A stretch of DNA of 59,499 nt from a virus (IMGVR_UViG_2874945390_000008), one strand, 5' to 3'; counted from the stretch's first letter, positions 35,137-59,078 are shown. Notes: generated from the sequence alone by a model not told the origin. Translations and numbers: made by a program.

Positions 35137-35211
<75 letters not shown>

Positions 35212-35214
35212 ATA

Positions 35215-35290
<76 letters not shown>

Positions 35291-35292
35291 GC

Positions 35293-35369
35293 TGGCCCAC
35301 CACCGAGGACTCGAACCTCGCACCGTCAACTTAGAAGGTTGATGCTCTATCCGGATGAGCTAGTGGTGG
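35293..35369 (-). tRNA. tRNA-Arg (anticodon UCU)
   Basis: rc folds with acceptor CCACCAC/GTGGTGG, anticodon loop CTTCTAA, T-arm CGAGGTTCGAGTCCTCG, CCA end. Confidence 0.75.
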
Positions 35370-35370
35370 T

Positions 35371-35447
35371 TGGTGGCCCTTGCTGGACTTGAACCAGCGA
35401 CCTGGCGATTATGAGTCGCTCGCTCTGACCAACTGAGCTAAAGGGCC
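35371..35447 (-). tRNA. tRNA-Ile2-like (anticodon CAU; tRNA-Met not excluded by anticodon alone)
   Basis: rc = GGCCCTTTAGCTCAGTTGGTCAGAGCGAGCGACTCATAATCGCCAGGTCGCTGGTTCAAGTCCAGCAAGGGCCACCA, close to ileX as I recall it. Confidence 0.8.
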
Positions 35448-35654: not shown

Positions 35655-36212
35655 TTAAAGCTGCATCAGCCTTTCCACCAGTTTATCTCTGCGAACAACA
35701 AACCAACCATTGGCTCTCGCCAGTTCCAGCCATGACTCAAGGGAAATAACAATATCATCATCCCGCAACTGAATTGTGGAAACAGTGACACCGCCTTGCT
35801 GATAACAGAGAACTCGCGTGTCGTAACTTTTCTGGCATGAAACTGGCGTTGACGGCTCCTTTTGACTGAAATAGCAGTCTTCCAGTTTTTCGAACACATC
35901 CCACGCCTGATCGGTTTCGAGCATTTTTGCGTGGCGGGCTGCGCCGCGTTCTGTCCAGAGAATGAGGGAGCGGGTTTTGGGAGAGATGGGATTTTGTGAG
36001 TAGTTTAAAGCTACCCGCAATTCTTTAAGGTCATTACCAACAACTTTGAAAAAGTGTTTCCCTTCAACGAAGCGTACTTTGTTCTCATGATGATTCTGGC
36101 GAATACGCACCGGCTCAGTGCCGTAAAGCTGCGCCAAAAGTTCGGTGGTAATAACAGGAATCTGGTTATAGGTAACAGGGGAAAGGTTTTTGACAGAAAT
36201 CTGAACAGTCAT
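35655..36212 (-). CDS. Phage antirepressor-like DNA-binding protein (ORF6N-type, copy X)
   Basis: MTVQISVKNLSPVTYNQIPVITTELLAQLYGTE...SLILWTERGAARHAKMLETDQAWDVFEKLEDCYF; paralogue at 40190..40735. Confidence 0.5.
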   Translation of the reverse strand: MTVQISVKNLSPVTYNQIPVITTELLAQLYGTEPVRIRQNHHENKVRFVEGKHFFKVVGNDLKELRVALNYSQNPISPKTRSLILWTERGAARHAKMLETDQAWDVFEKLEDCYFSQKEPSTPVSCQKSYDTRVLCYQQGGVTVSTIQLRDDDIVISLESWLELARANGWFVVRRDKLVERLMQL

Positions 36213-36470
36213 AACGACCTCGCGTTTCGATGGTTTTTAACTCACCACCTGCGACGCCAATCGCTGGGTGGTGAACTGTGCAGGGTTGGCGTAACCGGTC
36301 GAAACATCCGGCGAGTCTCTCAACTCCCCCACACAGCCCACCATAAATCGCGAATGTGACTGTGCTTAGCGCATAAAAAAACCGCCAGCGCGGTTATGCA
36401 CCGTTTTGAGGTAGCCTGAGTTTAACGGACACTCCTTCCTGAAATAGAATGGCATCAGAAGGAGCTAATA

Positions 36471-36773
36471 ATGAGCAGAAAAACCCAACGTTACTCTAAA
36501 GAGTTCAAAGCCGAAGCTGTCAGAACGGTTCTTGAAAATCAACTTTCGATCAGTGAAGGCGCTTCCCGATTATCCCTTCCTGAAGGCACTTTAGGACAAT
36601 GGGTTACCGCCGCCAGAAAAGGGCTCGGTACTCCTGGTTCCCGCACGGTGGCTGAACTGGAATCTGAAATTCTGCAACTGCGTAAGGCGTTAAATGAAGC
36701 TCGCCTTGAGCGAGATATATTAAAAAAAGCAACAGCGTATTTTGCACAGGAGTCGCTGAAAAATACGCGTTAG
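36471..36773 (+). CDS. IS600 OrfA
   Basis: MSRKTQRYSKEFKAEAVRTVLENQLSISEGASRLSLPEGT...; A7 slippery run at 36722..36728. Confidence 0.88.
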   Translation: MSRKTQRYSKEFKAEAVRTVLENQLSISEGASRLSLPEGTLGQWVTAARKGLGTPGSRTVAELESEILQLRKALNEARLERDILKKATAYFAQESLKNTR

Positions 36774-36808
36774 TCGAACAATGGCGACAACAATTCCCTG
36801 TTGAAGCG

Positions 36809-37627
36809 ATGTGTCAGGTATTTGGTGTATCCAGGAGCGGTTATTACAACTGGGTACAGCATGAACCCTCAGACAGAAAACAAAGTGATGAGCGGCTAAA
36901 ACTGGAGATTAAGGTGGCACATATCCGCACTCGCGAAACATATGGAACCCGGCGGCTCCAGACGGAGCTGGCAGAGAATGGCATCATCGTTGGTCGTGAC
37001 CGACTGGCACGTCTTCGTAAGGAGCTAAGGCTACGCTGTAAGCAGAAACGCAAGTTCAGAGCGACTACGAACCCGAACCACAATCTGCCAGTTGCGCCAA
37101 ATCTGCTGAACCAGACGTTCGCTCCTACAGCACCAAATCAGGTCTGGGTGGCGGACCTGACGTATGTTGCCACACAGGAGGGATGGTTGTACCTCGCTGG
37201 CATCAAAGATGTTTATACGTGCGAAATTGTCGGCTACGCCATGGGAGAGCGCATGACAAAAGAGCTGACAGGTAAAGCCCTGTTTATGGCGCTCAGGAGC
37301 CAGCGCCCACCTGCCGGGCTAATCCACCACTCTGATCGAGGTTCACAGTACTGCGCATACGATTACCGGGTCATACAGGAGCAGTTTGGTCTGAAAACAT
37401 CAATGTCGCGTAAAGGTAACTGTTACGACAACGCTCCGATGGAAAGCTTCTGGGGAACGCTGAAAAATGAGAGCCTGAGCCACTATCGTTTTAATAACCG
37501 GGATGAAGCCATCTCAGTAATACGGGAATACATTGAGATTTTCTACAATCGTCAGCGTCGTCACTCTCGTCTGGGGAATATCTCCCCGGCAGCCTTCAGG
37601 GAAAAATATCATCAGATGGCTGCTTAA
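36809..37627 (+). CDS. IS600 OrfB (made as OrfAB by -1 frameshift; track start is the first in-frame ATG)
   Basis: DDE transposase ...WVADLTYVATQEGWLYLAGIKDVYTCEIVGYAM...; -1 frame is open from the A-run. Confidence 0.85.
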   Translation: MCQVFGVSRSGYYNWVQHEPSDRKQSDERLKLEIKVAHIRTRETYGTRRLQTELAENGIIVGRDRLARLRKELRLRCKQKRKFRATTNPNHNLPVAPNLLNQTFAPTAPNQVWVADLTYVATQEGWLYLAGIKDVYTCEIVGYAMGERMTKELTGKALFMALRSQRPPAGLIHHSDRGSQYCAYDYRVIQEQFGLKTSMSRKGNCYDNAPMESFWGTLKNESLSHYRFNNRDEAISVIREYIEIFYNRQRRHSRLGNISPAAFREKYHQMAA

Positions 37628-37674
37628 AAAAAGAACAAATGGTAGTGTCCGCTATTGCCAGTACACCTCATTTC

Positions 37675-37735
37675 GATATCCGGGACGCCAATCCCGACGC
37701 CAGATTTTGCTGGCGCGTGAGGAATATAGCCCCGG
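37675..37735. repeat. ~60-bp conserved element, copy 1
   Basis: catccgggacgccaatcccgacgccagattttgctggcgcgtgaggaatatagccccgga also at 40940..41000; contains hairpin cgccag-attttg-ctggcg. Confidence 0.7.
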
Positions 37736-40189: not shown

Positions 40190-40735
40190 TTAAAGCTCCA
40201 TTAATTTTCCGGCAAGTTCATCTCGCGGCATTACCAGCCATCCGCGCGATTTAAGCAACATCAGGGCTTCTTCAACCGTCACCAGCTGACCAGGCGCATA
40301 ACTTCGGATGAAGGCAGTTTTATCATCACGGATCGCCAGGTGAATATCGATGTTCATTTTCCCCGTAGCCCGATCTTTCTCGTACTGGTTGAAGTAGCAG
40401 TCTTCCAATTTTTCGAATACTTCCCACGCCTGATCGGTTTCGAGCATTTTAGCGTGACGTGCTGCTCCGCGTTCTGTCCAGAGAATGAGGGAGCGAACGT
40501 TACGGGCAATTTTCACAGACTCGCTTAAAGATAGTCTGTGCTTCATACCTCTAAGCTCATCGCCCACTAACTTATAAAAATGCTTACCTTCAATAAAACG
40601 TTCAGCGTTTCTGGCGTGATTTTGCTGAATGCGAATCGCTTCTGTGCCGTACAACTGCGCCAAAAGTTCAGTGGTAATAACAGGTATCTGGTTATGGGCG
40701 ATCGGGGAGAGAGTTTCAACAGAGATTTGAGTGGT
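40190..40735 (-). CDS. Phage antirepressor-like DNA-binding protein (ORF6N-type, copy Y)
   Basis: MTTQISVETLSPIAHNQIPVITTELLAQLYGTE...; paralogue of 35655..36212. Confidence 0.5.
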   Translation of the reverse strand, partial: TTQISVETLSPIAHNQIPVITTELLAQLYGTEAIRIQQNHARNAERFIEGKHFYKLVGDELRGMKHRLSLSESVKIARNVRSLILWTERGAARHAKMLETDQAWEVFEKLEDCYFNQYEKDRATGKMNIDIHLAIRDDKTAFIRSYAPGQLVTVEEALMLLKSRGWLVMPRDELAGKLMEL

Positions 40736-40889
40736 CATAACGATAACTCCGTACATTTGGAAATTATCGCCACCGACGACGCCAATCGAACTGGTGGCGA
40801 ACTGTGCAGGGTTGGCGTAACCGGGTACGGAAACCGGCGAGCCTTTCGGCTCCCCCACACAGCCCGCCATAAATCGCGAATGTGACTGT

Positions 40890-40915
40890 GCAAACGATAT
40901 GAAAAAAGACGCGGA
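40890..40915 (-). terminator. Hairpin plus T-run upstream of copy Y
   Basis: Minus strand AGACGCGtccGCGTCTtttttc. Confidence 0.4.
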
Positions 40916-40939
40916 CGCGTCTCATATCGCTCCGTAAAC

Positions 40940-41000
40940 ATCCGGGACGCCAATCCCGACGCCAGATTTTGCTGGCGCGTGAGGAATATAGCCCCGGATT
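40940..41000. repeat. ~60-bp conserved element, copy 2
   Basis: Same sequence as 37675..37735. Confidence 0.7.
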
Positions 41001-42327: not shown

Positions 42328-42348
42328 TTCACTACCGCCCTTTCGGGC

Positions 42349-43647
42349 CTGAGGGATCCCCACAAAATTACTGCTAATAAACCAGCACCATATTTCGGTA
42401 GGTTCTGGACAGATGGTTTAGAACTGTGCTCAGTACTGTTCGTCTTAAAATAAGTGGCGAGTGTCGAAGAACATTCTTCGCTAACGTCAGATATGAGATA
42501 ACCCGCCGGGATTTAATGCTGTTAGCCTGATATTTCAGGTGTAACCCTTTATTTTCAGCGTGATAACCGAGTAACCACATTACGATAGTGCTCAACGTTG
42601 CCAGCAGACTCAGAACCAGAATTCTTCCTGTTGAACGACTTTTGCTGGCCCGAAGACCAAATCCGAAGCGCCCGTTCTTTTCATCACGAAAGTTTTGCTC
42701 TATCTGCATTCGCCGACTGTATAACTTGATGATTTCTCGCGCTCTGAAGTCATTTGTACTGCTGAAGATCAACCAGGCTTCTTTTGCTGATTTGCTCTGT
42801 TCTTTGTCTGTTTTGTTTAAACCACTCTGACCTTTCGAACGTTTCTTTTTTCGCCCTTTTGCCGATTTCTTATAGGTGTAAAAATGCCCCCGGATGCTTT
42901 TTTCCTTTCTTTAACCAGCCTTCCAGCCCCCATATATTCCGGTGTTTTACATTCAGGGCTATCCGACACTTTTAACCATCTTTCAGGCGCGTTATCGAGG
43001 CAATACTGAACGTTATTTCTGATCCGACCAATAAAATCCCAGCCCAGAGAAGTAATATGGTGAAACCATGCGCTCTGAAATCCAGCATCCGTGACAATAA
43101 TAACCCTGGCATCGGGGGCAGGGATTGAGCAAGGGAATCAAGGAAATCATGTTGTATCAATGGATTATTTTGTTTTTCAGAAGGAACAACCTTACTCAAT
43201 AACGGAATGGAACGCCCGTCACACAGAAGGCTGGCACGAAGAACATGATGCTCCTGGGAGGGATAGCCACTCCAGTCTACGGCTATTACACATAAAGATA
43301 ACTGCCGTGTCAGCATTGAAGTGATATTCCTGAAAATCATTGGAATATCGCGATGGAGCGCCTCATTACCCATGAGGCGATCAATACGTTTGCTCTTATT
43401 CTTAACTTGTGCATTACCCGGCAAAAAACGTCCGATACTGGTCAGCGTCAGAGATGCTCCGTTGATTAACGCCACTGTGGCATCCATCAGGGCATTTTGT
43501 CGGTACTGATGAAATGGTGCTAAGGCATCCCGGAAGAAATTCTGACATACTTTATGAACAGGCATAGCAGTGATCTCATTGAATTGTTGGCACAAATCAG
43601 TAGATCACATAATGCTATGTCTGTCTCGTTTTCTGGGGATTCCTCAG
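42349..43647 (-). mobile_element. IS10-like element (IS4 family), copy A, defective
   Basis: Ends CTGAGGGATCCCCACAAAA / CTGAGGAATCCCCAGAAAA; transposase frame broken by C6 to C5 (43114..43118) and A7 to A6 (42898..42903) relative to copy B. Confidence 0.8.
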
Positions 43648-43970
43648 GGCAGGGGGGCGGCGAATTGTCTCTGGTACCTGGCAAGGACTGGAACAATCAG
43701 CAGAATATCTATCACCGTTGGTTGAAAGGTGAAACGAAAGCGCAAAGGGAAAAAATTCAGAAACTGATCCCTGCGGTTCTGGCAATTCTTCCGCGTGAGC
43801 TGCGTCACCGACTCTGTATCTTCGATACCCTGGAACGCCGTGCATTACTGGCGGCGCAGGAAGCGTTGAGTACGGCAATTGATGCGCATGATGATGCTGT
43901 CCAGGCCGTTTACCGGAAAGCACATTTCAGCGGTGGTGGGTCGCCCGGCGATTCTGTCGTAGTGCATTGA
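43648..43970 (+). pseudogene. ydaT-like gene, 3' fragment
   Basis: Joins in frame with 47813..47921(-) across one copy of ggcaggggg to give MKIRHEHIESVLLALAAEKGQAWVANAITEEYLRQGGGELSLVPGKDW... Confidence 0.65.
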
Positions 43971-44047
43971 TTGAAATTAATCGTGCCGGATTGTTTTGTT
44001 CGGTATCAGTTAAATGTAACGCTGCGAGCGTTACAAGGTGAAAACAA

Positions 44048-44825
44048 ATGGCTTCAAACTGGATAAAGCTCGAGGTTATTACGCCGGATAAGCCGGAAAT
44101 ATTCAGGCTTGCTGAGATTCTGAATATTGATCCAGATGCCGCATTAGGGAAGGTTATTCGCTTCTGGGCATGGGCGGATCAACAAATGATAGACGGTAAT
44201 GCAGATTGTAACGCTCGCGGCGTTACAAAAAGTGCAATAGATCGCATCACTTTTATGTCTGGTTTTGCTGATGCGTTAATTCAGGTTGGATGGCTGGTCG
44301 AAAATGACGGTGGGCTTTCTCTACCTAACTTTGAACGTCATAACGGAAAAAGCTCTAAAAAAACGGGCGGTTACAAACGAGCGAGTAACAAAAATACGCG
44401 AACTGAAACGAAAAGGTAACGCGGCCAGCGTTACACAAACGGATCAAAAAGCGTTACCAGAGGAAGATCTAAATACTGATCTCCCCCTAAATCCCCCTCG
44501 CCAAAAACGAGCGTCTAAAAAATTCGAGCCGGAGGCTATTGAGCTGCCCGATTGGTTGCCGGAAACACTCTGGCATGAGTGGGTCCGGTTCAGACAGGCA
44601 TTGCGAAAACCGATTCGAACGGAGCAGGGCGCTAACGGGGCGATACGGGAACTGGAAAAATTCCGTCAGCAGGGTTTTACACCTGAGCAGGTGATTCGAC
44701 ACAGCATCGCCAATGAATACCAGGGCCTGTTCGCGCCGAAAGGTGTTCGGCCTGAGACGTTGCTCCGACAGGTTAACACCGTCTCGTTGCCGGACAGTGC
44801 GATCCCGCCAGGCTTCAGGGGGTAA
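44048..44825 (+). pseudogene. ydaU-like replication protein, frame broken at an A7 run
   Basis: ORFs 44048..44419 and 44286..44825 overlap in adjacent frames around ctaaaaaaacgg (about 44352). Confidence 0.45.
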
Positions 44826-44831
44826 CGGACC

Positions 44832-45578
44832 ATGAAAAATATTGCGACAGGCGGCGTTCTGGAACGCATCCGCCGACTGACCCCGCCACATGTAATCGCC
44901 CCATTCAGAACGGTAGCGGAGTGGTGCGAGTGGCAACTTGCTGAAGGCCAGAAACGTAGCGAGGAGATCAACCGCCTGAATCGCCAGTTGCGGGTGGAAA
45001 ATATTCTGAATCGCTCAGGCATCCAGCCGTTGCACCGTAAATGCTCGTTTGCGAATTACCAGGTGCAGAACGACGGCCAGCGATACGCGTTAAGCCAGGC
45101 GAAATCCATCGCCGATGAACTGATGACCGGGTGTACAAATTTTGCGTTCAGCGGAAAACCTGGTACCGGGAAGAATCACTTAGCGGCAGCTATCGGGAAT
45201 CGCCTGCTGAAAGACGGTCAGACAGTGAATGTGGTTACCGTGGCTGATGTTATGAGCGCCCTGCACGCCAGCTATGACGACGGGCAGTCAGGCGAAAAAT
45301 TTTTGCGGGAGCTGTGCGAAGTGGATCTGCTGGTTCTTGATGAAATTGGCATTCAGCGCGAGACGAAAAACGAGCAGGTGGTGCTGCACCAGATTGTTGA
45401 TCGCCGGACAGCGTCGATGCGCAGCGTGGGGATGCTGACAAACCTGAACTATGAGGTGATGAAAACATTGCTCGGCGAGCGGATTATGGATCGCATGACC
45501 ATGAACGGCGGGCGCTGGGTGAATTTTAACTGGGAGAGCTGGCGTCCGAATGTTAGCCATTCGAGGGTTGTTAAGTAG
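44832..45578 (+). CDS. DnaC-like helicase loader (Rac YdaV-like)
   Basis: Walker A GKPGTGKNHLAAAIG, Walker B LLVLDEIG; MKNIATGGVLERIRRL... Confidence 0.85.
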   Translation: MKNIATGGVLERIRRLTPPHVIAPFRTVAEWCEWQLAEGQKRSEEINRLNRQLRVENILNRSGIQPLHRKCSFANYQVQNDGQRYALSQAKSIADELMTGCTNFAFSGKPGTGKNHLAAAIGNRLLKDGQTVNVVTVADVMSALHASYDDGQSGEKFLRELCEVDLLVLDEIGIQRETKNEQVVLHQIVDRRTASMRSVGMLTNLNYEVMKTLLGERIMDRMTMNGGRWVNFNWESWRPNVSHSRVVK

Positions 45579-45592
45579 TTTCAGGAGGATTT

Positions 45593-46015
45593 ATGGCGAA
45601 ACCTTTTACTCCCGAACAGCGGGAAGAACTGAAGACGCGAATTGTGGAACTCGTGCATCAGGACGGTCGGGTCACGATTCGGCAGTTGTCAGATGAAACA
45701 GGTATCAGTCGTGCGTCTGTCGGTCGCTTATGCATGGAACTGGTCGCAAGTGGTGATGTATATAATTCTGGCTACGGCTTATTCCCGTCTGAACAGGCTC
45801 GCAAGGACTGGCAAAGCGCCCGCAAAAAACTCTCGAGAGTAAAGGTGAGGAAACCATCTGTGGTTGATCTGGATCTTATCTGGTCATTACCTGACGGAGA
45901 AATACGTCGTTACGACAGGCGTCATAATATAATTTGTACTGAGTGTCGTAAAAGCGAAGTTATGCAGCGTGTATTGGCTTTCTATCAGGGTAATTTTCAG
46001 GAGGTGGTACTGTGA
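45593..46015 (+). CDS. Putative HTH DNA-binding protein
   Basis: ...RVTIRQLSDETGISRASVGRLCMELVASGDV... HTH-like segment; 140 aa. Confidence 0.4.
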   Translation: MAKPFTPEQREELKTRIVELVHQDGRVTIRQLSDETGISRASVGRLCMELVASGDVYNSGYGLFPSEQARKDWQSARKKLSRVKVRKPSVVDLDLIWSLPDGEIRRYDRRHNIICTECRKSEVMQRVLAFYQGNFQEVVL

Positions 46016-46072
46016 GTGAAATTAGTTATCAGGCACTAATTGCCGCAGGCATTCGCATCAAAGGAGAGTGAC

Positions 46073-46429
46073 GTGGAAATAAAACCAGAAGATGAGTTAA
46101 GTAATATTGTTTTATTTCCGGTAAAAGAGGATGACCCTCGTAATCAGGTTAATTTTCTTTATGATCCATCGGAAAGACCATATTGCCATCACGCCTCTGT
46201 ACGGGTTGACGAAAAAGAGCGTCAGGTCCGCTGTAAAATCTGCGGTGCGGTTGTGGAGCCGTTTGACTGGATGCTCTCTGTGGCAAAAAGAGAAACCAGA
46301 CTGGCAGATGATGTAAGGCTATTGCGCCAGGAGGAACAGGAAAGGCGGAGAAATATAGAAAAGCTGATACAGATTGAGCGTAACGCGAAAGCGCGGATAC
46401 GCAGGGCGACAAAATCCAGAACTGAATAA
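46073..46429 (+). CDS. Zinc-ribbon / coiled-coil protein
   Basis: GTG start after AAGGAG; CHH...CKICG motif then charged coiled-coil. Confidence 0.35.
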   Translation: MEIKPEDELSNIVLFPVKEDDPRNQVNFLYDPSERPYCHHASVRVDEKERQVRCKICGAVVEPFDWMLSVAKRETRLADDVRLLRQEEQERRRNIEKLIQIERNAKARIRRATKSRTE

Positions 46430-46511
46430 TTAAATTTAGCACTGTTAAAAATTTAATCCTTAACCGGAGGGATTCCTGCACCCTCAAATCATCAGGAGGC
46501 CGCCCGAAAGG

Positions 46512-47812
46512 CTGAGGAATCCCCAGAAAACGAGACAGACATAGCATTATGTGATCTACTGATTTGTGCCAACAATTCAATGAGATCACTGCTATGCCTG
46601 TTCATAAAGTATGTCAGAATTTCTTCCGGGATGCCTTAGCACCATTTCATCAGTACCGACAAAATGCCCTGATGGATGCCACAGTGGCGTTAATCAACGG
46701 AGCATCTCTGACGCTGACCAGTATCGGACGTTTTTTGCCGGGTAATGCACAAGTTAAGAATAAGAGCAAACGTATTGATCGCCTCATGGGTAATGAGGCG
46801 CTCCATCGCGATATTCCAATGATTTTCAGGAATATCACTTCAATGCTGACACGGCAGTTATCTTTATGTGTAATAGCCGTAGACTGGAGTGGCTATCCCT
46901 CCCAGGAGCATCATGTTCTTCGTGCCAGCCTTCTGTGTGACGGGCGTTCCATTCCGTTATTGAGTAAGGTTGTTCCTTCTGAAAAACAAAATAATCCATT
47001 GATACAACATGATTTCCTTGATTCCCTTGCTCAATCCCTGCCCCCCGATGCCAGGGTTATTATTGTCACGGATGCTGGATTTCAGAGCGCATGGTTTCAC
47101 CATATTACTTCTCTGGGCTGGGATTTTATTGGTCGGATCAGAAATAACGTTCAGTATTGCCTCGATAACGCGCCTGAAAGATGGTTAAAAGTGTCGGATA
47201 GCCCTGAATGTAAAACACCGGAATATATGGGGGCTGGAAGGCTGGTTAAAGAAAGGAAAAAAAGCATCCGGGGGCATTTTTACACCTATAAGAAATCGGC
47301 AAAAGGGCGAAAAAAGAAACGTTCGAAAGGTCAGAGTGGTTTAAACAAAACAGACAAAGAACAGAGCAAATCAGCAAAAGAAGCCTGGTTGATCTTCAGC
47401 AGTACAAATGACTTCAGAGCGCGAGAAATCATCAAGTTATACAGTCGGCGAATGCAGATAGAGCAAAACTTTCGTGATGAAAAGAACGGGCGCTTCGGAT
47501 TTGGTCTTCGGGCCAGCAAAAGTCGTTCAACAGGAAGAATTCTGGTTCTGAGTCTGCTGGCAACGTTGAGCACTATCGTAATGTGGTTACTCGGTTATCA
47601 CGCTGAAAATAAAGGGTTACACCTGAAATATCAGGCTAACAGCATTAAATCCCGGCGGGTTATCTCATATCTGACGTTAGCGAAGAATGTTCTTCGACAC
47701 TCGCCACTTATTTTAAGACGAACAGTACTGAGCACAGTTCTAAACCATCTGTCCAGAACCTACCGAAATATGGTGCTGGTTTATTAGCAGTAATTTTGTG
47801 GGGATCCCTCAG
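46512..47812 (+). mobile_element. IS10-like element (IS4 family), copy B, intact
   Basis: 1301 bp; same ends as copy A; single 407-aa transposase ORF. Confidence 0.85.
46564..47787 (+). CDS. IS4-family (IS10-group) transposase
   Basis: MCQQFNEITAMPVHKVCQNFFRDALAPFHQYRQ...VTDAGFQSAW...YSRRMQIEQNFRDEK... Confidence 0.8.
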   Translation: MCQQFNEITAMPVHKVCQNFFRDALAPFHQYRQNALMDATVALINGASLTLTSIGRFLPGNAQVKNKSKRIDRLMGNEALHRDIPMIFRNITSMLTRQLSLCVIAVDWSGYPSQEHHVLRASLLCDGRSIPLLSKVVPSEKQNNPLIQHDFLDSLAQSLPPDARVIIVTDAGFQSAWFHHITSLGWDFIGRIRNNVQYCLDNAPERWLKVSDSPECKTPEYMGAGRLVKERKKSIRGHFYTYKKSAKGRKKKRSKGQSGLNKTDKEQSKSAKEAWLIFSSTNDFRAREIIKLYSRRMQIEQNFRDEKNGRFGFGLRASKSRSTGRILVLSLLATLSTIVMWLLGYHAENKGLHLKYQANSIKSRRVISYLTLAKNVLRHSPLILRRTVLSTVLNHLSRTYRNMVLVY

Positions 47813-47921
47813 CCCCCTGCCGCAGATATTCTTCAGTAATTGCGTTAGCGACCCACGCCTGCCCTTTTTCGGCTGCCAGGGCTAACAGCACTGATTCGAT
47901 GTGCTCATGCCTGATTTTCAT
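47813..47921 (-). pseudogene. ydaT-like gene, 5' fragment
   Basis: MKIRHEHIESVLLALAAEKGQAWVANAITEEYLRQG ends at the IS junction; 9-mer ccccctgcc abuts the IS. Confidence 0.6.
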
Positions 47922-48128
47922 GAATCACCTTCCTAGGTCGTTTTGCCTTACGATATTCGTCATAAACTTTGGGGTCGTACTGAAGTTCCCCGCCAGATGC
48001 CTCTTGCAGGCGCATCGCGCGACCTTCAGGAACCAGTTCCCCCCATGCAGGCTTGCCAGCCTAACTCCTGCGGCATTGGCAAGCTTTGTTTTGCTGCCAA
48101 AAAACGCTATAGCATCAATTTTCAACAT
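47905..48128 (-). pseudogene. dicC: Cro/DicC-like regulator with a 1-bp frameshift in a G-run
   Basis: MLKIDAIAFFGSKTKLANAAGVRLASLHGG then out of frame; adding one G restores ...ELVPEGRAMRLQEASGGELQYDPKVYDEYRK. Confidence 0.55.
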
Positions 48129-48204
48129 ATCGAGCTCCTTAGATTTTCCTAAGGAAACTAGATCGTAGAGAAACCTAAGTCAAGAAAAATTAGAATTCCC
48201 TAAT

Positions 48205-48612
48205 ATGAAAAACGAAACCTTCGGTGCTCGCCTCTTACATAGGCGTAAAAAATTAAAACTGTCTCAGGCCGCATTAGGTAAGCTGGTCAAAGTGGCTCAC
48301 GTAACAATTTCTCAATGGGAAAGAGATGAAACACAGCCGGCGGGGAAAAGATTATTCGCACTGAGCCAAGCGCTTCAGTGCTCACCGGCTTGGCTTCTTT
48401 TTGGGGATGAAGATAAACAACCAGGCGAACCGATCCCGGATAATCAGCCAGCCATTCTGACAGAAGATCAAAAAGAGTTACTTCAACTGTTCGACGCACT
48501 GCCTGAGTCAGAGCAAAAGGCCCTGTTGTCAGAGATGCGTGCTCGAGTTGAAAATTTCAACAAACTTTTTGAAGAACTACTCAAAGCTCGCAAAAGAAGC
48601 GCAAACAAATAA
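48205..48612 (+). CDS. dicA: DicA-like HTH repressor
   Basis: MKNETFGARLLHRRKKLKLSQAALGKLVKVAHVTISQWERDETQPAGKRLFALSQALQCSPAWLLFGDEDKQP...; divergent from the cro-like gene. Confidence 0.8.
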   Translation: MKNETFGARLLHRRKKLKLSQAALGKLVKVAHVTISQWERDETQPAGKRLFALSQALQCSPAWLLFGDEDKQPGEPIPDNQPAILTEDQKELLQLFDALPESEQKALLSEMRARVENFNKLFEELLKARKRSANK

Positions 48613-48817
48613 TCCCCTTTTTTCTCCACACCCTGTAATAAAAAGCACAAACTTTCAAACACTTGTGTTTTTTACATCAAAAAAAAACTTAGGTTTTTCT
48701 ACATAAAAATCTTGACCACCCACCTTAGGTTATTCTAAGTTTCATTCATCAAGACACCGCACGGTGTTCTCAGCAAACAGTTCCGCTACCCCGGCGTTAA
48801 GGGGAAATGGGGTCAAC

Positions 48818-48973
48818 ATGAATACTATCGATCTTGGCAACAACGAATCTCTGGTGTACGGCGTGTTCCCCAACCAGGACGGCACATTCACCGCCATGAC
48901 GTATACCAAAAGCAAAACGTTTAAAACCGAAGCTGGCGCACGTCGTTGGTTGGGAAGACATTCAGGTGAGTAA
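48818..48973 (+). CDS. ydfA: YdfA-like small protein
   Basis: MNTIDLGNNESLVYGVFPNQDGTFTAMTYTKSKTFKTEAGARRWLGRHSGE. Confidence 0.6.
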   Translation: MNTIDLGNNESLVYGVFPNQDGTFTAMTYTKSKTFKTEAGARRWLGRHSGE

Positions 48974-48974
48974 A

Positions 48975-49178
48975 ATGAACGAGACAGAATTAAAACACGT
49001 TATCGCTCTACTCCTAGAAGATGCAAAACGCCTCCAGCAACTGGAGCCAAATGCAGGCACTGGGGCGCGCATCTGGCTGGCTAAAGAAGCGCTGGAATCT
49101 GGCGATTATGATAGCGAAGAAGCCTTCTACAAAGCAGAAGGCCGTACAGGATATTCACCGGGTCTTGGCGGGGTATAA
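48975..49178 (+). CDS. YdfB-like small protein
   Basis: MNETELKHVIALLLEDAKRLQQLEPNAG...; ATG after AGGTGAG. Confidence 0.45.
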   Translation: MNETELKHVIALLLEDAKRLQQLEPNAGTGARIWLAKEALESGDYDSEEAFYKAEGRTGYSPGLGGV

Positions 49179-49363
49179 ATACCATGCGCATTGACTGAAT
49201 TCGCAAACAAAAACAGACGCGCGATACCTGGATAGTCGGTCTGCATAGTCAGATATCTGGCTGCGAATTTGATAAATATCACCGCCCTTTTCGGAAACAT
49301 AAGTTCCGTCCGGGAGTTGATTATACGAACCATCTCCATGGGGGATCGTTCTCCTGAATCCTA

Positions 49364-50516
49364 AATAGCTGCGCTTAATACCGCTACACTTTTGCCAGTC
49401 CATGTTTGCCTCCGGGGAATGGGCTGACGGTTTCCATAAAATGGCGAACTTTTTTCAACAGTTGCCACATTGAGCGGCACTGATGATTACGCGTTATTGT
49501 GTCGTGAAGTGCCTGCCATAGCCGTTCAACATGATTCACCCATGGCGAGTAAACCGGCTGATAAATGACCCTGAACTTCGGGTTCTCCTTCAGCCAGCTC
49601 TGTGTTTCCCGGCTTTTGTGGATAATGTAGTTGTCCACGATCAGCGTGATGGTTTTCGCCCGACGGTATGTCGCTTTAAGCCGCTTCAGCAGGCTGATGA
49701 ACAGCGCCGAACTTTTGCTGTTGCCGCCCACATAGCTGACTTTACCTGTCCCGCTGTGCAGCGCTCCGGCCAGATAATATTTTTCATTCTGTCCCGGCGT
49801 GACCACCCGTTTTTGCTGTCCGCGCAGTTGCCAGTCCGCACCGATTTTGGGATGAAGATGGATATCCACTTCATCTTCATAAAAGACCGGATGCTCTGCG
49901 CTGCATTCGTCCAGTGCTTTATGGATTGCTGCCATCTTTTCATCTTTATGCGGGTCACGGATACGCAGAGTTGGCGCAGCCCTTCGCCACACAATCCCCG
50001 CAGACGGCAACCAGCGGCGAACGGTTCCGGCATTTAACTGGCAACCGGTTATCTCATTGATTTTTATTGCCAGCAGTTCTGTACTCCAGCGTGAACGCTG
50101 GTAGCCAAAGTCGCCGGGAGAATGTTTTACCAGCTCACGTAACAGTGTGCAGATATGCTCAAACGGCCAGCGACGGGCACGCCCGGCAGGTAATGATTTC
50201 AGTCCCTCAACACCCGACTGCGTGAACCAGTTAATCCAGCGTCCAACAGAGGAACGGGCGCAGCAGAGCGTTCTGGCAACGTCGCTGACACGGTCGCCCC
50301 GGTGCAGCATCAGCATGGCAGTCAGTCTGCGGGCATAATTTTTATCGTGTGTTTTATGGATGGCTTTCTGCATCAGGCGTCGTTCGTCACGGGAAATTGG
50401 TGCTATGATCGGCATTGCTCAGTCCGGTTGGTGATTTGTTTTGATTTGGCGATTGATCAGATCGCACAATCCGGGCTAAGTTCCCTCAAAGTGATCTACT
50501 ATTCCGCGCAGCTATT
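49364..50516 (-). mobile_element. IS630 (1153 bp)
   Basis: Terminal inverted repeats aatagctgcgc / gcgcagctatt; TA duplication in a CTAG context (49362..49363 and 50517..50518). Confidence 0.85.
49384..50415 (-). CDS. IS630-family transposase
   Basis: 343-aa ORF MPIIAPISRDERRLMQKAIHKTHDKNYARRLTAMLMLHRGDRVSDVAR... Confidence 0.85.
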   Translation of the reverse strand: MPIIAPISRDERRLMQKAIHKTHDKNYARRLTAMLMLHRGDRVSDVARTLCCARSSVGRWINWFTQSGVEGLKSLPAGRARRWPFEHICTLLRELVKHSPGDFGYQRSRWSTELLAIKINEITGCQLNAGTVRRWLPSAGIVWRRAAPTLRIRDPHKDEKMAAIHKALDECSAEHPVFYEDEVDIHLHPKIGADWQLRGQQKRVVTPGQNEKYYLAGALHSGTGKVSYVGGNSKSSALFISLLKRLKATYRRAKTITLIVDNYIIHKSRETQSWLKENPKFRVIYQPVYSPWVNHVERLWQALHDTITRNHQCRSMWQLLKKVRHFMETVSPFPGGKHGLAKV

Positions 50517-50835: not shown

Positions 50836-51105
50836 AAAGTGAATTTTGTGATGCGGTGAATGCGGCTCAGCGCACGCGGAACAGTTAAAACAGTAAGGAA
50901 AATCCCTTATTCCGGCGTTAATTATTAACTGGTTAACGTCACCTGGAGGCACCAGGCACCGCATCAACAAAGTTCACTTCGGTGATGAAAGGAAAGAGAA
51001 AATGTTGAATGTAGCTATTGAAAACCAGAACGGGTGGAATTATAGTGCACCTGCACCTCATAAAACGGGTGCCGGGATTGCTACCCCGAAGTCATTCACG
51101 GCGCA

Positions 51106-51128
51106 TAACCGCGCTCAGGCGGTTTTTT
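51106..51128 (+). terminator. Hairpin plus T7 terminator upstream of the Rha-like gene
   Basis: aaccgcgctcaggcggttttttta. Confidence 0.5.
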
Positions 51129-51295
51129 TATGCGTAATGCACAGCCACATTCAAATTATGGTGGGGCGTGCGGGGCAGTCGCAAGACTGGCCGGGTTCCG
51201 TGATGACCGGTTGTAGCAACCCTGTACGTCTCACCACCCATGAGATTGCTACCTCCGGTGGTGAGTTAATCACATTCATCGCGGAGGCTGCCATC

Positions 51296-54751: not shown

Positions 54752-55566
54752 AATCTATGGCGCTTTTTCAACGAGCAATAAACACACAGGCCTATCTAAA
54801 AGCAGGAATTATGGGGTTTGCTGGCGACGGCAAAACCTACACAGCAAGCGAACTGGCTATTGGTCTGGTAATGCTTATGCGGCAACGGGGAATTGAAGCT
54901 GGTAACCGCCCGGTAATGTTTCTGGACACAGAAACAGGCTCTGACTGGGTTAAACCCCGCTTTGATGCGGAAAATATCGAATTATTTACGGCAAAAACCC
55001 GCTCGTTTGTTGATCTGCTTGAAGCCATTAATGAAGCGGAAAGCAGCGGTTCCGTAATGATCATCGACTCCATCAGTCACTTCTGGACCGGATTATGCGA
55101 CGAGTATGCCAGACGCCGAAACCGTAAACGAGGACTGGAATTTTCAGACTGGGCGTGGCTCAAACAGGAGTGGCGACGCTTTACCGATCGATTTGTTAAC
55201 AGTCAGGCGCACATTATTATGTGCGGGCGTGCAGGATATGAGTATGACTTTTTCGAAGGTGATGATGGCAAACGCCAGTTGGCAAAAACCGGTATAAAAA
55301 TGAAAGCAGAAACAGAAACCGGTTATGAACCCTCCATCCTGATCCAGATGGAGAAGCAAATGAACATAGAAACCGGTCAGGTGTGGCGCACCGCCAGAAT
55401 ACTAAAAGATCGCTCCACCCGTATTGATGGACAGGTATTTTCAAACCCAACATTTAAAAACTTTCTTCCTCATATCGAGTTTCTTAACCTGGGAGGTGAA
55501 CACCTCGGCATCGATACCTCACGGGATAACAGTGAATTATTTGCCAACGACGGTACACCGACATGG

Positions 55567-56816
55567 TGAGGTGTACTGGCAATAGCGGACACTACCATTT
55601 GTTCTTTTTTTAAGCAGCCATCTGATGATATTTTTCCCTGAAGGCTGCCGGGGAGATATTCCCCAGACGAGAGTGACGACGCTGACGATTGTAGAAAATC
55701 TCAATGTATTCCCGTATTACTGAGATGGCTTCATCCCGGTTATTAAAACGATAGTGGCTCAGGCTCTCATTTTTCAGCGTTCCCCAGAAGCTTTCCATCG
55801 GAGCGTTGTCGTAACAGTTACCTTTACGCGACATTGATGTTTTCAGACCAAACTGCTCCTGTATGACCCGGTAATCGTATGCGCAGTACTGTGAACCTCG
55901 ATCAGAGTGGTGGATTAGCCCGGCAGGTGGGCGCTGGCTCCTGAGCGCCATAAACAGGGCTTTACCTGTCAGCTCTTTTGTCATGCGCTCTCCCATGGCG
56001 TAGCCGACAATTTCGCACGTATAAACATCTTTGATGCCAGCGAGGTACAACCATCCCTCCTGTGTGGCAACATACGTCAGGTCCGCCACCCAGACCTGAT
56101 TTGGTGCTGTAGGAGCGAACGTCTGGTTCAGCAGATTTGGCGCAACTGGCAGATTGTGGTTCGGGTTCGTAGTCGCTCTGAACTTGCGTTTCTGCTTACA
56201 GCGTAGCCTTAGCTCCTTACGAAGACGTGCCAGTCGGTCACGACCAACGATGATGCCATTCTCTGCCAGCTCCGTCTGGAGCCGCCGGGTTCCATATGTT
56301 TCGCGAGTGCGGATATGTGCCACCTTAATCTCCAGTTTTAGCCGCTCATCACTTTGTTTTCTGTCTGAGGGTTCATGCTGTACCCAGTTGTAATAACCGC
56401 TCCTGGATACACCAAATACCTGACACATCGCTTCAATGGGAAATTGTTGTCGCCATTGTTCGATTAACGCGTATTTTTCAGCGACTCCTGTGCAAAATTT
56501 TAATATATCTCGCTCAAGGCGAGCTTCATTTAACGCCTTACGCAGTTGCAGAATTTCAGATTCCAGTTCAGCCACCGTGCGGGAACCAGGAGTACCGAGC
56601 CCTTTTCTGGCGGCGGTAACCCATTGTCCTAAAGTGCCTTCAGGAAGGAATAATCGGGAAGCGCCTTCACTGATCGAAAGTTGATTTTCAAGAACCGTTC
56701 TGACAGCTTCGGCTTTGAACTCTTTAGAGTAACGTTGGGTTTTTCTGCTCATTATTAGCTCCTTCTGATGCCATTCTATTTCAGGAAGGAGTGTCCGTTA
56801 AACTCAGGCTACCTCA
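55567..56816 (-). mobile_element. IS600-like copy 3 (1250-bp variant)
   Basis: Same ends; 3-bp direct repeat TGG (55564..55566 and 56817..56819). Confidence 0.88.
55610..56752 (-). CDS. IS600 OrfAB in-frame fused transposase (380 aa)
   Basis: Single ORF MSRKTQRYSKEFK...RDILKFCTGVAEKY...; the frameshift window is removed by a 14-bp deletion relative to copy 2. Confidence 0.8.
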   Translation of the reverse strand: MSRKTQRYSKEFKAEAVRTVLENQLSISEGASRLFLPEGTLGQWVTAARKGLGTPGSRTVAELESEILQLRKALNEARLERDILKFCTGVAEKYALIEQWRQQFPIEAMCQVFGVSRSGYYNWVQHEPSDRKQSDERLKLEIKVAHIRTRETYGTRRLQTELAENGIIVGRDRLARLRKELRLRCKQKRKFRATTNPNHNLPVAPNLLNQTFAPTAPNQVWVADLTYVATQEGWLYLAGIKDVYTCEIVGYAMGERMTKELTGKALFMALRSQRPPAGLIHHSDRGSQYCAYDYRVIQEQFGLKTSMSRKGNCYDNAPMESFWGTLKNESLSHYRFNNRDEAISVIREYIEIFYNRQRRHSRLGNISPAAFREKYHQMAA

Positions 56817-57146
56817 TGGCTAAAAGAAAAGCGTGCAAAAGAAATCGCACTTGATGAAATTATCGAGTTGCTCAACAAGCACCATGGGGGCACCAGTAAC
56901 GACGCCAAACGCGCAAAAGCTGATTTGCTGGAAAAAACATTCACCTCCCGCTCATGGGAAAGAATCAAAGGTATGGACTGGCCGACAATCAAAGCTGGTC
57001 GTAATGCACTATGGATTGAACTGGAAGGCGTTGAATATGCATTCCCGGATCCACAAACACAAAACGAAACGCAACAAGCAGGATACGATGAGAATATTCC
57101 GGTGTAAAACCAAGTGCATTTTGGGAAAATATTAATGGAGGTGTTC

Positions 57147-57335
57147 ATGTATAAAATTACAGCCACTATTGAAAAGGAAGGTGGTTCTCCTGCCAGCTGG
57201 ACAAGATACTCAAAGACAAAACTAACGAAATCAGAATGCGAAAAAATGCTCTCAGGGGAAAAAGAAGCAGGCGTTTCCAGAGAGCAGAAAGTAAAACTGA
57301 TAAATTTTAATTGCGAGAAACTTCAGTCCTCGTGA
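57147..57335 (+). CDS. Hypothetical small protein
   Basis: MYKITATIEKEGGSPASWTRYSK...; ATG after GGAGG. Confidence 0.35.
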   Translation: MYKITATIEKEGGSPASWTRYSKTKLTKSECEKMLSGEKEAGVSREQKVKLINFNCEKLQSS

Positions 57336-57435
57336 ATTTCATTATATCCAGATTAGAACTTCATAGCTGATTATTAAAAATCAACCACACCCGCCAGTAT
57401 TCTGTATATTTACTGGCGGTCATATCGTGAGAGGT

Positions 57436-57723
57436 ATGGCAATGAATCTTGTGACACTCAAAACGTGGGGAAAACTCAGATATCCGGATACCCCACCATC
57501 AATATCAACGCTGAGACGATGGGCAAGGAATGGAAACATTTATCCTGCACCTGAACTACACGGGAGGAGTTACAGGGTGGTTCCGGAGGCTTTCTATATC
57601 AACCCAAATAAGGTTGATACCGATATAACACACCATCAGCCTAATGGGCGACAAGGGAGAGACAGTCCGTTAATGGAGAAGTTAAAACATGCAGCGGAAA
57701 AAATACGATCCCAATTTGCCTAG
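57436..57723 (+). CDS. xis: Excisionase-like protein
   Basis: ...ISTLRRWARNGNIYPAPELHGRSYRVVPEAFYI...; immediately upstream of and overlapping int. Confidence 0.6.
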   Translation: MAMNLVTLKTWGKLRYPDTPPSISTLRRWARNGNIYPAPELHGRSYRVVPEAFYINPNKVDTDITHHQPNGRQGRDSPLMEKLKHAAEKIRSQFA

Positions 57724-58765: not shown

Positions 58766-58896
58766 TTTTAACGTAAATGGATTGTTAAATGTATTTTGGT
58801 TGTGATATAACCAAAAAAGACCGGAATACAGAAATTCGAGTAAATTTCGGGGAATTTCGGGGAAGCATTTGTAACTAATTGATTTCAAATGCAATT

Positions 58897-58999
58897 AAAA
58901 AAAGACCGAATACGATTCCTGTATTCGGTCCAGGGAAATGGCTCTTGGGAGAGAGCCGTGCGCTAAAAGTTGGCATTAATGCAGGCTTAGTTGCCTTGC
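58897..58999 (-). ncRNA. sdsR: SdsR/RyeB-like small RNA
   Basis: Minus strand GCAAGGCAACTAAGCCTGCATTAATGCC...CCCTGGACCGAATACAGGAATCGTATTCGGTCTTTTTTT as I recall SdsR; terminal hairpin plus T-run. Confidence 0.55.
58904..58929. other. Putative attR core overlapping the sdsR 3' hairpin
   Basis: Direct imperfect repeat of 376..401; tandem aatttcgggg motif at 58845..58864 between int and the core. Confidence 0.4.
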
Positions 59000-59078
59000 C
59001 CTTTAAGAATAGATGACGACGCCAGGTTTTCCAGTTTGCGTGCAAAATGGTCAATAAAAAGCGCGGTGGTCATCAGCT

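Follow-up and report, generated by a model that had tools for sequence, protein, structure and literature searches.

The stretch of DNA considered here, IMGVR_UViG_2874945390_000008 (59,499 nucleotides; hereafter the window), lies in the closed 5.1-Mb chromosome CP026836.1, given as Shigella boydii in PMC12817139. Between positions 42,328 and 47,921 it contains two inverted copies of the insertion sequence (IS) ISSfl1, which bracket part of the replication genes of a prophage. Judged by gene order and DNA similarity the prophage is a lambdoid cryptic element of the Rac type, since recE, ydaE, ydaF, ydaT, ydaU, ydaV, trkG and ralA occur in blocks ordered as in K-12 Rac at 84-97% identity. Comparison with relatives supports a reading of the locus as a 2864-bp inversion between the two ISSfl1 copies, situated within the early-right operon (in the order cro - ydaT - ydaU - ydaV - DUF977). 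The features are collected in Table 1.

The ISSfl1 copies and their flanking repeats

A first-pass annotation of the window had reported two IS10-like elements in inverted orientation, and sequence reading together with a repeat alignment found their positions to be exact. The label is a fair one, as the 1301-bp size and the ends that start with CT fit the limits of the IS10 subgroup (1200-1350 bp, CT ends, 9-bp repeats; PMC2266710) and the duplications come near that length, at 9 or 10 bp; it can be refined to a named element. Copy B is 99.9% identical over 1301 nt to a locus in Escherichia coli FDAARGOS_943 (NZ_CP065615.1) that RefSeq annotates as "IS4-like element ISSfl1 family transposase", and the name ISSfl1 is used here because of that annotation. 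The transposase of copy B matches Pfam DDE_Tnp_1 (E = 2.5e-18) and NCBIfam transpos_IS4_2 (359.5 bits against a cutoff of 152), and its translation contains the Y-(2)-R-(3)-E-(6)-K signature defined for the IS4 family (PMC2266710) in the form YSRRMQIEQNFRDEK; a PDB sequence search with the transposase returned chance-level matches alone. Both ends of the element read CTGAGG.ATCCCC, with terminal inverted repeats identical at 17 of 20 positions. Copy A differs from copy B solely in two 1-nt homopolymer deletions at IS positions 530 and 746 (C6 to C5 near 43119, A7 to A6 near 42904), which cut its transposase gene into three open reading frames (ORFs).

The ends of both copies abut short repeats derived from two target sites, here called x and y. 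The earlier annotation had described a 10-mer (CCTTTCGGGC, site x) and a 9-mer (GGCAGGGGG, site y) whose reverse complements each abut the other IS copy, and every position of these repeats proved exact. Each target duplication is seen directly to be split, with one copy outside one IS and its reverse complement inside the other. Within the window the 10-mer has no further occurrence and the 9-mer has one, at 14117; for two exact matches, one of 9 nt and one of 10 nt, each to adjoin an IS end, chance is no possible explanation (∼4^-19). The repeat at x is a duplication of 10 bp, not 9 bp. Duplications generated by ISSfl1 measure 9 bp at y; they measure 10 bp at x, in the window as in a further viral contig (L010, see below), and also at a site between puuB and puuE in FDAARGOS_943 (L003 1491..1500 and 2802..2811). 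The ISSfl1 targets are GC-rich; site x falls within GCCGCCC-TTTC-GGGCGGC, which forms a perfect hairpin, and at the puu site the target CCCGCGCGGG is palindromic.

Table 1. Positions of the features discussed, counted from the first nucleotide of the window.
Feature	Position	Strand	Remarks
ISSfl1 copy A	42349..43647	-	1299 nt; transposase broken; 99.8% identical to copy B
ISSfl1 copy B	46512..47812	+	1301 nt; intact 397-aa DDE transposase
Target duplication x, CCTTTCGGGC, outer side of copy A	42339..42348		10-mer; in hairpin upstream of DUF7167 gene
Target duplication x, reverse complement, inner, at left inverted repeat (IRL) end of copy B	46502..46511		exact 10-mer
Target duplication y, GGCAGGGGG, reverse-complemented inner copy at IRL end of copy A	43648..43656		exact 9-mer
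Target duplication y, CCCCCTGCC, outer side of copy B	47813..47821		exact 9-mer
Inverted segment, early-right (replication) operon, 2864 bp	43648..46511	+ (ancestrally -)	from alignment to L001 and K-12 Rac
ydaT 3' part, ∼codons 34-140 and stop	43648..43970	+	Pfam YdaT_toxin, E = 5e-11; 92% DNA identity to K-12 ydaT
ydaT 5' part, 36 codons and 1 nt	47813..47921	-	runs into IS as 45-aa ORF
ydaU-like replication-initiator gene, frameshifted	44048..44825	+	3' half 91% identical to K-12 ydaU
ydaV / DnaC-like helicase-loader ATPase gene, intact, 248 aa	44832..45578	+	Pfam IstB_IS21; 91% identity to K-12 ydaV
DUF977 (ydaW-like) gene, 140 aa	45593..46015	+	E = 2e-35
Final gene of inverted segment	46040..46429	+	weak zinc-ribbon match
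cro-like gene, first of early-right operon, frameshifted	47925..48128	-	compared with L001 and L010
cI/RacR-like repressor gene, 135 aa	48205..48612	+	Pfam HTH_3, Phage_CI_repr; divergent from cro-like gene
IS600, three copies	655..1909, 36407..37671, 55563..56816	third inverted relative to other two	99% identical to annotated IS600 in L001
IS630-type transposase gene, early-left region	49384..50415		
isrK / C4-antisense / a1b1 modules, three	51053..51241; 40790..40991; 36264..36348 and 37627..37729	+; -; -	Rfam
RalA antitoxin small RNA	57153..57331		Rfam
SraC/RyeA-SdsR/RyeB pair, near right window end	58893..59037		Rfam
CssrB, near left window end	1918..2100		Rfam
Four-tRNA-gene cluster inside prophage	35140..35447		Rfam

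Restoration of the operon and the single-insertion stage

An ancestral sequence was built by joining the left flank up to 42348, the reverse complement of 43648..46501 and the right flank from 47822, a construction that drops both IS copies and one copy of each duplication. The suggestion that a ydaT-like gene had been split, its halves joining in frame over one copy of the 9-mer, is borne out by this sequence: the 109 nt of the 5' part and the 323 nt of the 3' part, less one 9-mer, give 423 nt with an open frame of 140 codons, and the uninterrupted 140-aa YdaT is 100% identical to WP_000702036.1 of FDAARGOS_943. The rebuilt genes run on one strand in the order cro-like, ydaT, ydaU-like, ydaV/DnaC-like, DUF977, a gene of 118 aa, DUF7167 and onward, and the collinearity with Rac that had been anticipated is found, as the order after re-inversion fits ydaT-ydaU-ydaV of K-12.

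The rebuilt sequence aligns with the IS-free prophage of E. coli FDAARGOS_943 as a single block (98.3% identity over 4421 columns), whereas the actual window aligns with it in two oppositely oriented pieces that overlap by exactly 9 bp, the 9-mer itself. Segment 43648..46511 aligns in reverse to L001 6182..3314, and 47813..49363 aligns forward to L001 6174..7725. At the x breakpoint the window likewise matches E. coli E01 (L002) in two pieces, here overlapping by exactly 10 bp. Empty sites occur that carry a single 10-mer (E01, L002) or a single 9-mer (L001, L010), and those of E01 and FDAARGOS_943 match the reconstruction base for base. With short junction queries, the rebuilt junctions are contiguous in 1236 E. 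coli genomes at x and in 455 at y, the latter count comprising matches that cover 80% or more of the rebuilt ydaT junction.

K-12 Rac (racR-ydaS-ydaT-ydaU-ydaV-ydaW) aligns in a single orientation along the window (trkG, ydaT-5', ydaF, ydaE, recE, ralA), and the sole reversed part is again 43648..46511. It resembles the window in gene order after re-inversion, in the 91-92% DNA identity of ydaT, the 3' half of ydaU and ydaV, and in the trkG, recE, ydaF and ralA/ralR regions that the two share; it differs in that the window has an IS-split ydaT, the flipped segment, and frameshifted cro-like and ydaU-like genes. No DNA match was found in K-12 Rac for the cro-like gene, nor for the ydaU-like gene in its 5' part. 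Both IS-free relatives whose module was followed throughout, FDAARGOS_943 and K-12 Rac, are unflipped, and an IS-free relative already in the present orientation was found neither at the ydaT breakpoint among the 455 genomes nor in these two. That the present orientation is ancestral is rejected, as the rebuilt ydaT junction matches IS-free relatives in which ydaT is annotated as intact and the two relatives just named are unflipped.

Three loci with the x junction (L008, L009 and L010) were detected when viral contigs were scanned, and in one of them a stage with a single IS is directly observed. L010 has one ISSfl1 of 1301 nt (6870..8170) at x, with the 10-mer in direct repeat on its two sides; its site y is empty, its ydaT is intact and identical, and its segment has the ancestral orientation. 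The x insertion of L008 and L009 is cut short by IS600, in both at the base equivalent to window position 42879. The insertion at x is therefore the older one and is shared with other contigs. The y insertion and the flip appear, among the data searched, to be specific to the CP026836.1 genome: exact matching of three proteins from the junctions or the module, done to find a second genome with the y insertion or a two-IS uninverted state, gave CP026836.1 alone, and junction patterns had no match in genome contigs or metagenome contigs nor, for y, in viral contigs. Junction sequences are identical in both orientations, so that only contigs spanning a whole IS discriminate between them.

Beyond the truncation, L008 jumps to a region equivalent to window ∼55500..57540, which suggests that IS600 brought about a different deletion or rearrangement in this prophage. 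In L010 an IS600 with a nested insert (3759..6245) interrupts the DUF977 gene at a point equivalent to window ∼45884..45894. In different strains, IS elements are striking the replication module independently.

Routes to the inversion

It is probable that a second ISSfl1 insertion was followed by homologous recombination between the inverted copies. By this route an ISSfl1 would have entered the GC hairpin between the last gene of the replication module and the DUF7167 gene (site x, with a 10-bp duplication); in the CP026836.1 lineage a second ISSfl1 would then have entered ydaT at ∼codons 34-36 in the opposite orientation (site y, with a 9-bp duplication); and host homologous recombination between the 1.3-kb inverted copies would finally have flipped the intervening DNA, moving one copy of each duplication to the other IS. 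We infer two separate events here, first the insertion at y and then the flip, the flip being recombination of the RecA type. Two insertions followed by recombination are favored because cut-and-paste is the mode described for the IS4 family (PMC2266710) and because recombination between inverted IS copies is a standard source of inversions in Shigella (PMC8072062), where 103 of 114 reconstructed inversions fall on Shigella branches and IS-linked inversions are frequent. The inversions surveyed there are alike in that inverted copies of an expanded IS bracket the flipped segment and a gene at the breakpoint is pseudogenized, but the present one is only 2.9 kb long, lies inside a prophage and retains both target duplications; the 5-kb synteny blocks of that survey are too coarse for an inversion of 2.9 kb. 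The prophage inversion is a clean case of a kind of rearrangement well known from IS-rich Shigella, and its mechanism is not new.

Several observations weigh against this sequence of events. No genome was found with both IS copies and the segment uninverted, the y insertion was seen in one genome only, and a single assembly underlies the orientation. Apart from its own two 1-nt deletions copy A is identical to copy B, and all differences of the L010 copy are private; neither a crossover point nor a separate origin of the second copy is demonstrable. A marker test on the IS copies had no power to distinguish the routes, as the L010 copy has neither frameshift and carries four private single-nucleotide polymorphisms; L008 and L009 agree with copy A at IS position 1265, the sole one of these four positions that they still cover.

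The first-pass annotation had read the flanks as the outcome of recombination between two IS copies that each possessed a target duplication, and of this the inversion stands, but the flank pattern is not specific to that route. In one-step intramolecular transposition "in trans", the ISSfl1 at x would attack ydaT on the same molecule and so produce the inverted second copy, the inverted 9-bp duplication and the flip in a single event without homologous recombination. Such a route, as documented for IS26 and Tn4401 (PMC4471558), predicts precisely what is seen, the old and the new duplications each being split as reverse complements, and a relative with one IS copy is known in those cases as it is here, the single-IS ancestor at x existing in L010. 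The swapped flanks alone are thus not proof of recombination, since one-step transposition yields the same, and the near-identity of A and B and the failure of the searches to find a two-IS uninverted intermediate would also be in keeping with a single event. Against it stands the replicative (Shapiro-type) chemistry that it requires: the known examples belong to other, replicative families (IS6 and Tn3), whereas ISSfl1 is an IS10-like member of the IS4 family, which is described as cut-and-paste (PMC2266710). A one-step origin is on this balance considered unlikely. The broader proposition, that one event produced second copy and inversion alike and that an IS10-like group regarded as strictly cut-and-paste can make replicative-type products in vivo, is a little more doubtful still. 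IS10 and IS50 are non-replicative, and their excision proceeds via hairpin intermediates.

It is very improbable that the orientation is an assembly artifact or reflects a mixed population, the true or predominant orientation being ancestral with both IS copies present, or the culture holding both forms. The dependence on a single assembly would allow this, recombination between inverted repeats is reversible, and homopolymer indels, of which there are three in 4 kb (copy A has two, the A-run of the ydaU-like gene one) and which could be either real decay or uncorrected long-read errors, could hint at the latter. On the other hand, a closed 5.1-Mb chromosome implies reads spanning the IS copies, both insertions and the split ydaT are real in the junction sequences whichever way the segment lies, and a mixed population would itself be an IS-mediated inversion. 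Least credible of all is the arrival of the IS-flanked segment as a unit, in the manner of a Tn10-like composite transposon. As in Tn10, an inverted IS10-like pair with one intact transposase brackets a DNA segment, and the outer ends could in principle mobilize it, but the outer flanks, which read CCTTTCGGGC and CCCCCTGCC, share no duplication in direct repeat, and the cargo is local prophage DNA, namely the missing middle of the surrounding operon, which completes ydaT. The flank test and the alignments to relatives rule this origin out. A weaker variant of the broader proposition above is that the inverted pair, with its one intact transposase, may now constitute a mobilizable composite element carrying the phage replication module.

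Decay of the replication module and its surroundings

Whether reached by two insertions and recombination or otherwise, the present arrangement places the replication genes on the strand opposite to the cro-like gene. They had been described as pointing away from that gene; they are in fact convergent with its transcription. Because of this antisense, convergent geometry, sense transcription from the cI/cro control region cannot reach the replication genes. Consensus promoter and terminator scans gave no matches in the cI/cro intergenic region or at the junction of the IS end and ydaT. The 3' part of ydaT is fused to the IS end, and the recorded gene call starts within that end and predicts a 117-aa product. 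The cI/RacR-like repressor gene has the same length as in the relative L001.

Two further genes of the operon are damaged. Compared with L001 and L010, the cro-like gene has a 4-nt deletion (ATTG) after 48050 that shifts the frame after codon 26, giving 67 aberrant aa in place of the intact 75-aa protein of both relatives. In the ydaU-like gene an additional A at 44357 (A6 to A7) creates two ORFs of 123 and 179 aa, and 6 nt are also missing in frame at 44458; in both L001 and L010 the protein is intact, at 260 aa. Because the cro-like and ydaU-like genes are also frameshifted, the inversion is best understood as part of the neutral decay that a dead prophage module undergoes, and not as a regulatory device.

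The ydaU-like gene has no Pfam or NCBIfam match. Directly upstream of it and inside it are three perfect palindromes, GTAACGC-N5-GCGTTAC (44016..44034, 44208..44226 and 44416..44434; 192 and 208 bp apart), which occur nowhere else in the window (expected number 0.02) and are candidates for binding sites such as operators or origin iterons. The ydaV-like protein scores 501 bits with NCBIfam PRK12377 and 301 bits with the DnaC model, the latter under that model's cutoff. For the final gene of the segment, the recorded call starts at 46073 and predicts 118 aa, and a mechanical ORF starting from a TTG at 46040 predicts 129 aa.

The prophage contains further IS elements, namely three copies of IS600 and one of IS630 type; the stretch that lies between inverted IS600 copies keeps the orientation of K-12 Rac. 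The SraC/SdsR locus adjoins the prophage and may reflect one more rearrangement. The isrK/C4-antisense/a1b1 modules adjoin anti-repressor-like genes (Rha/ASH, ORF6N), and the IS600 copy at 36407..37671 seems to interrupt the third of them; the region 35867..36365 is a paralogue of 40390..40891 (77% identical).

Beyond annotation, the inversion is of little consequence. Both parts of ydaT, and with them the chimeric ORFs of 45 and 117 aa, are best annotated as pieces of a pseudogene. The survival of both target duplications allows a probable order of events to be reconstructed, with an IS at x, an IS at y and then the flip, and the locus offers a concrete picture of IS expansion dismantling a Shigella cryptic prophage, in which ydaT is split, the replication genes are set against their promoter and the cro-like and ydaU-like genes carry point frameshifts.

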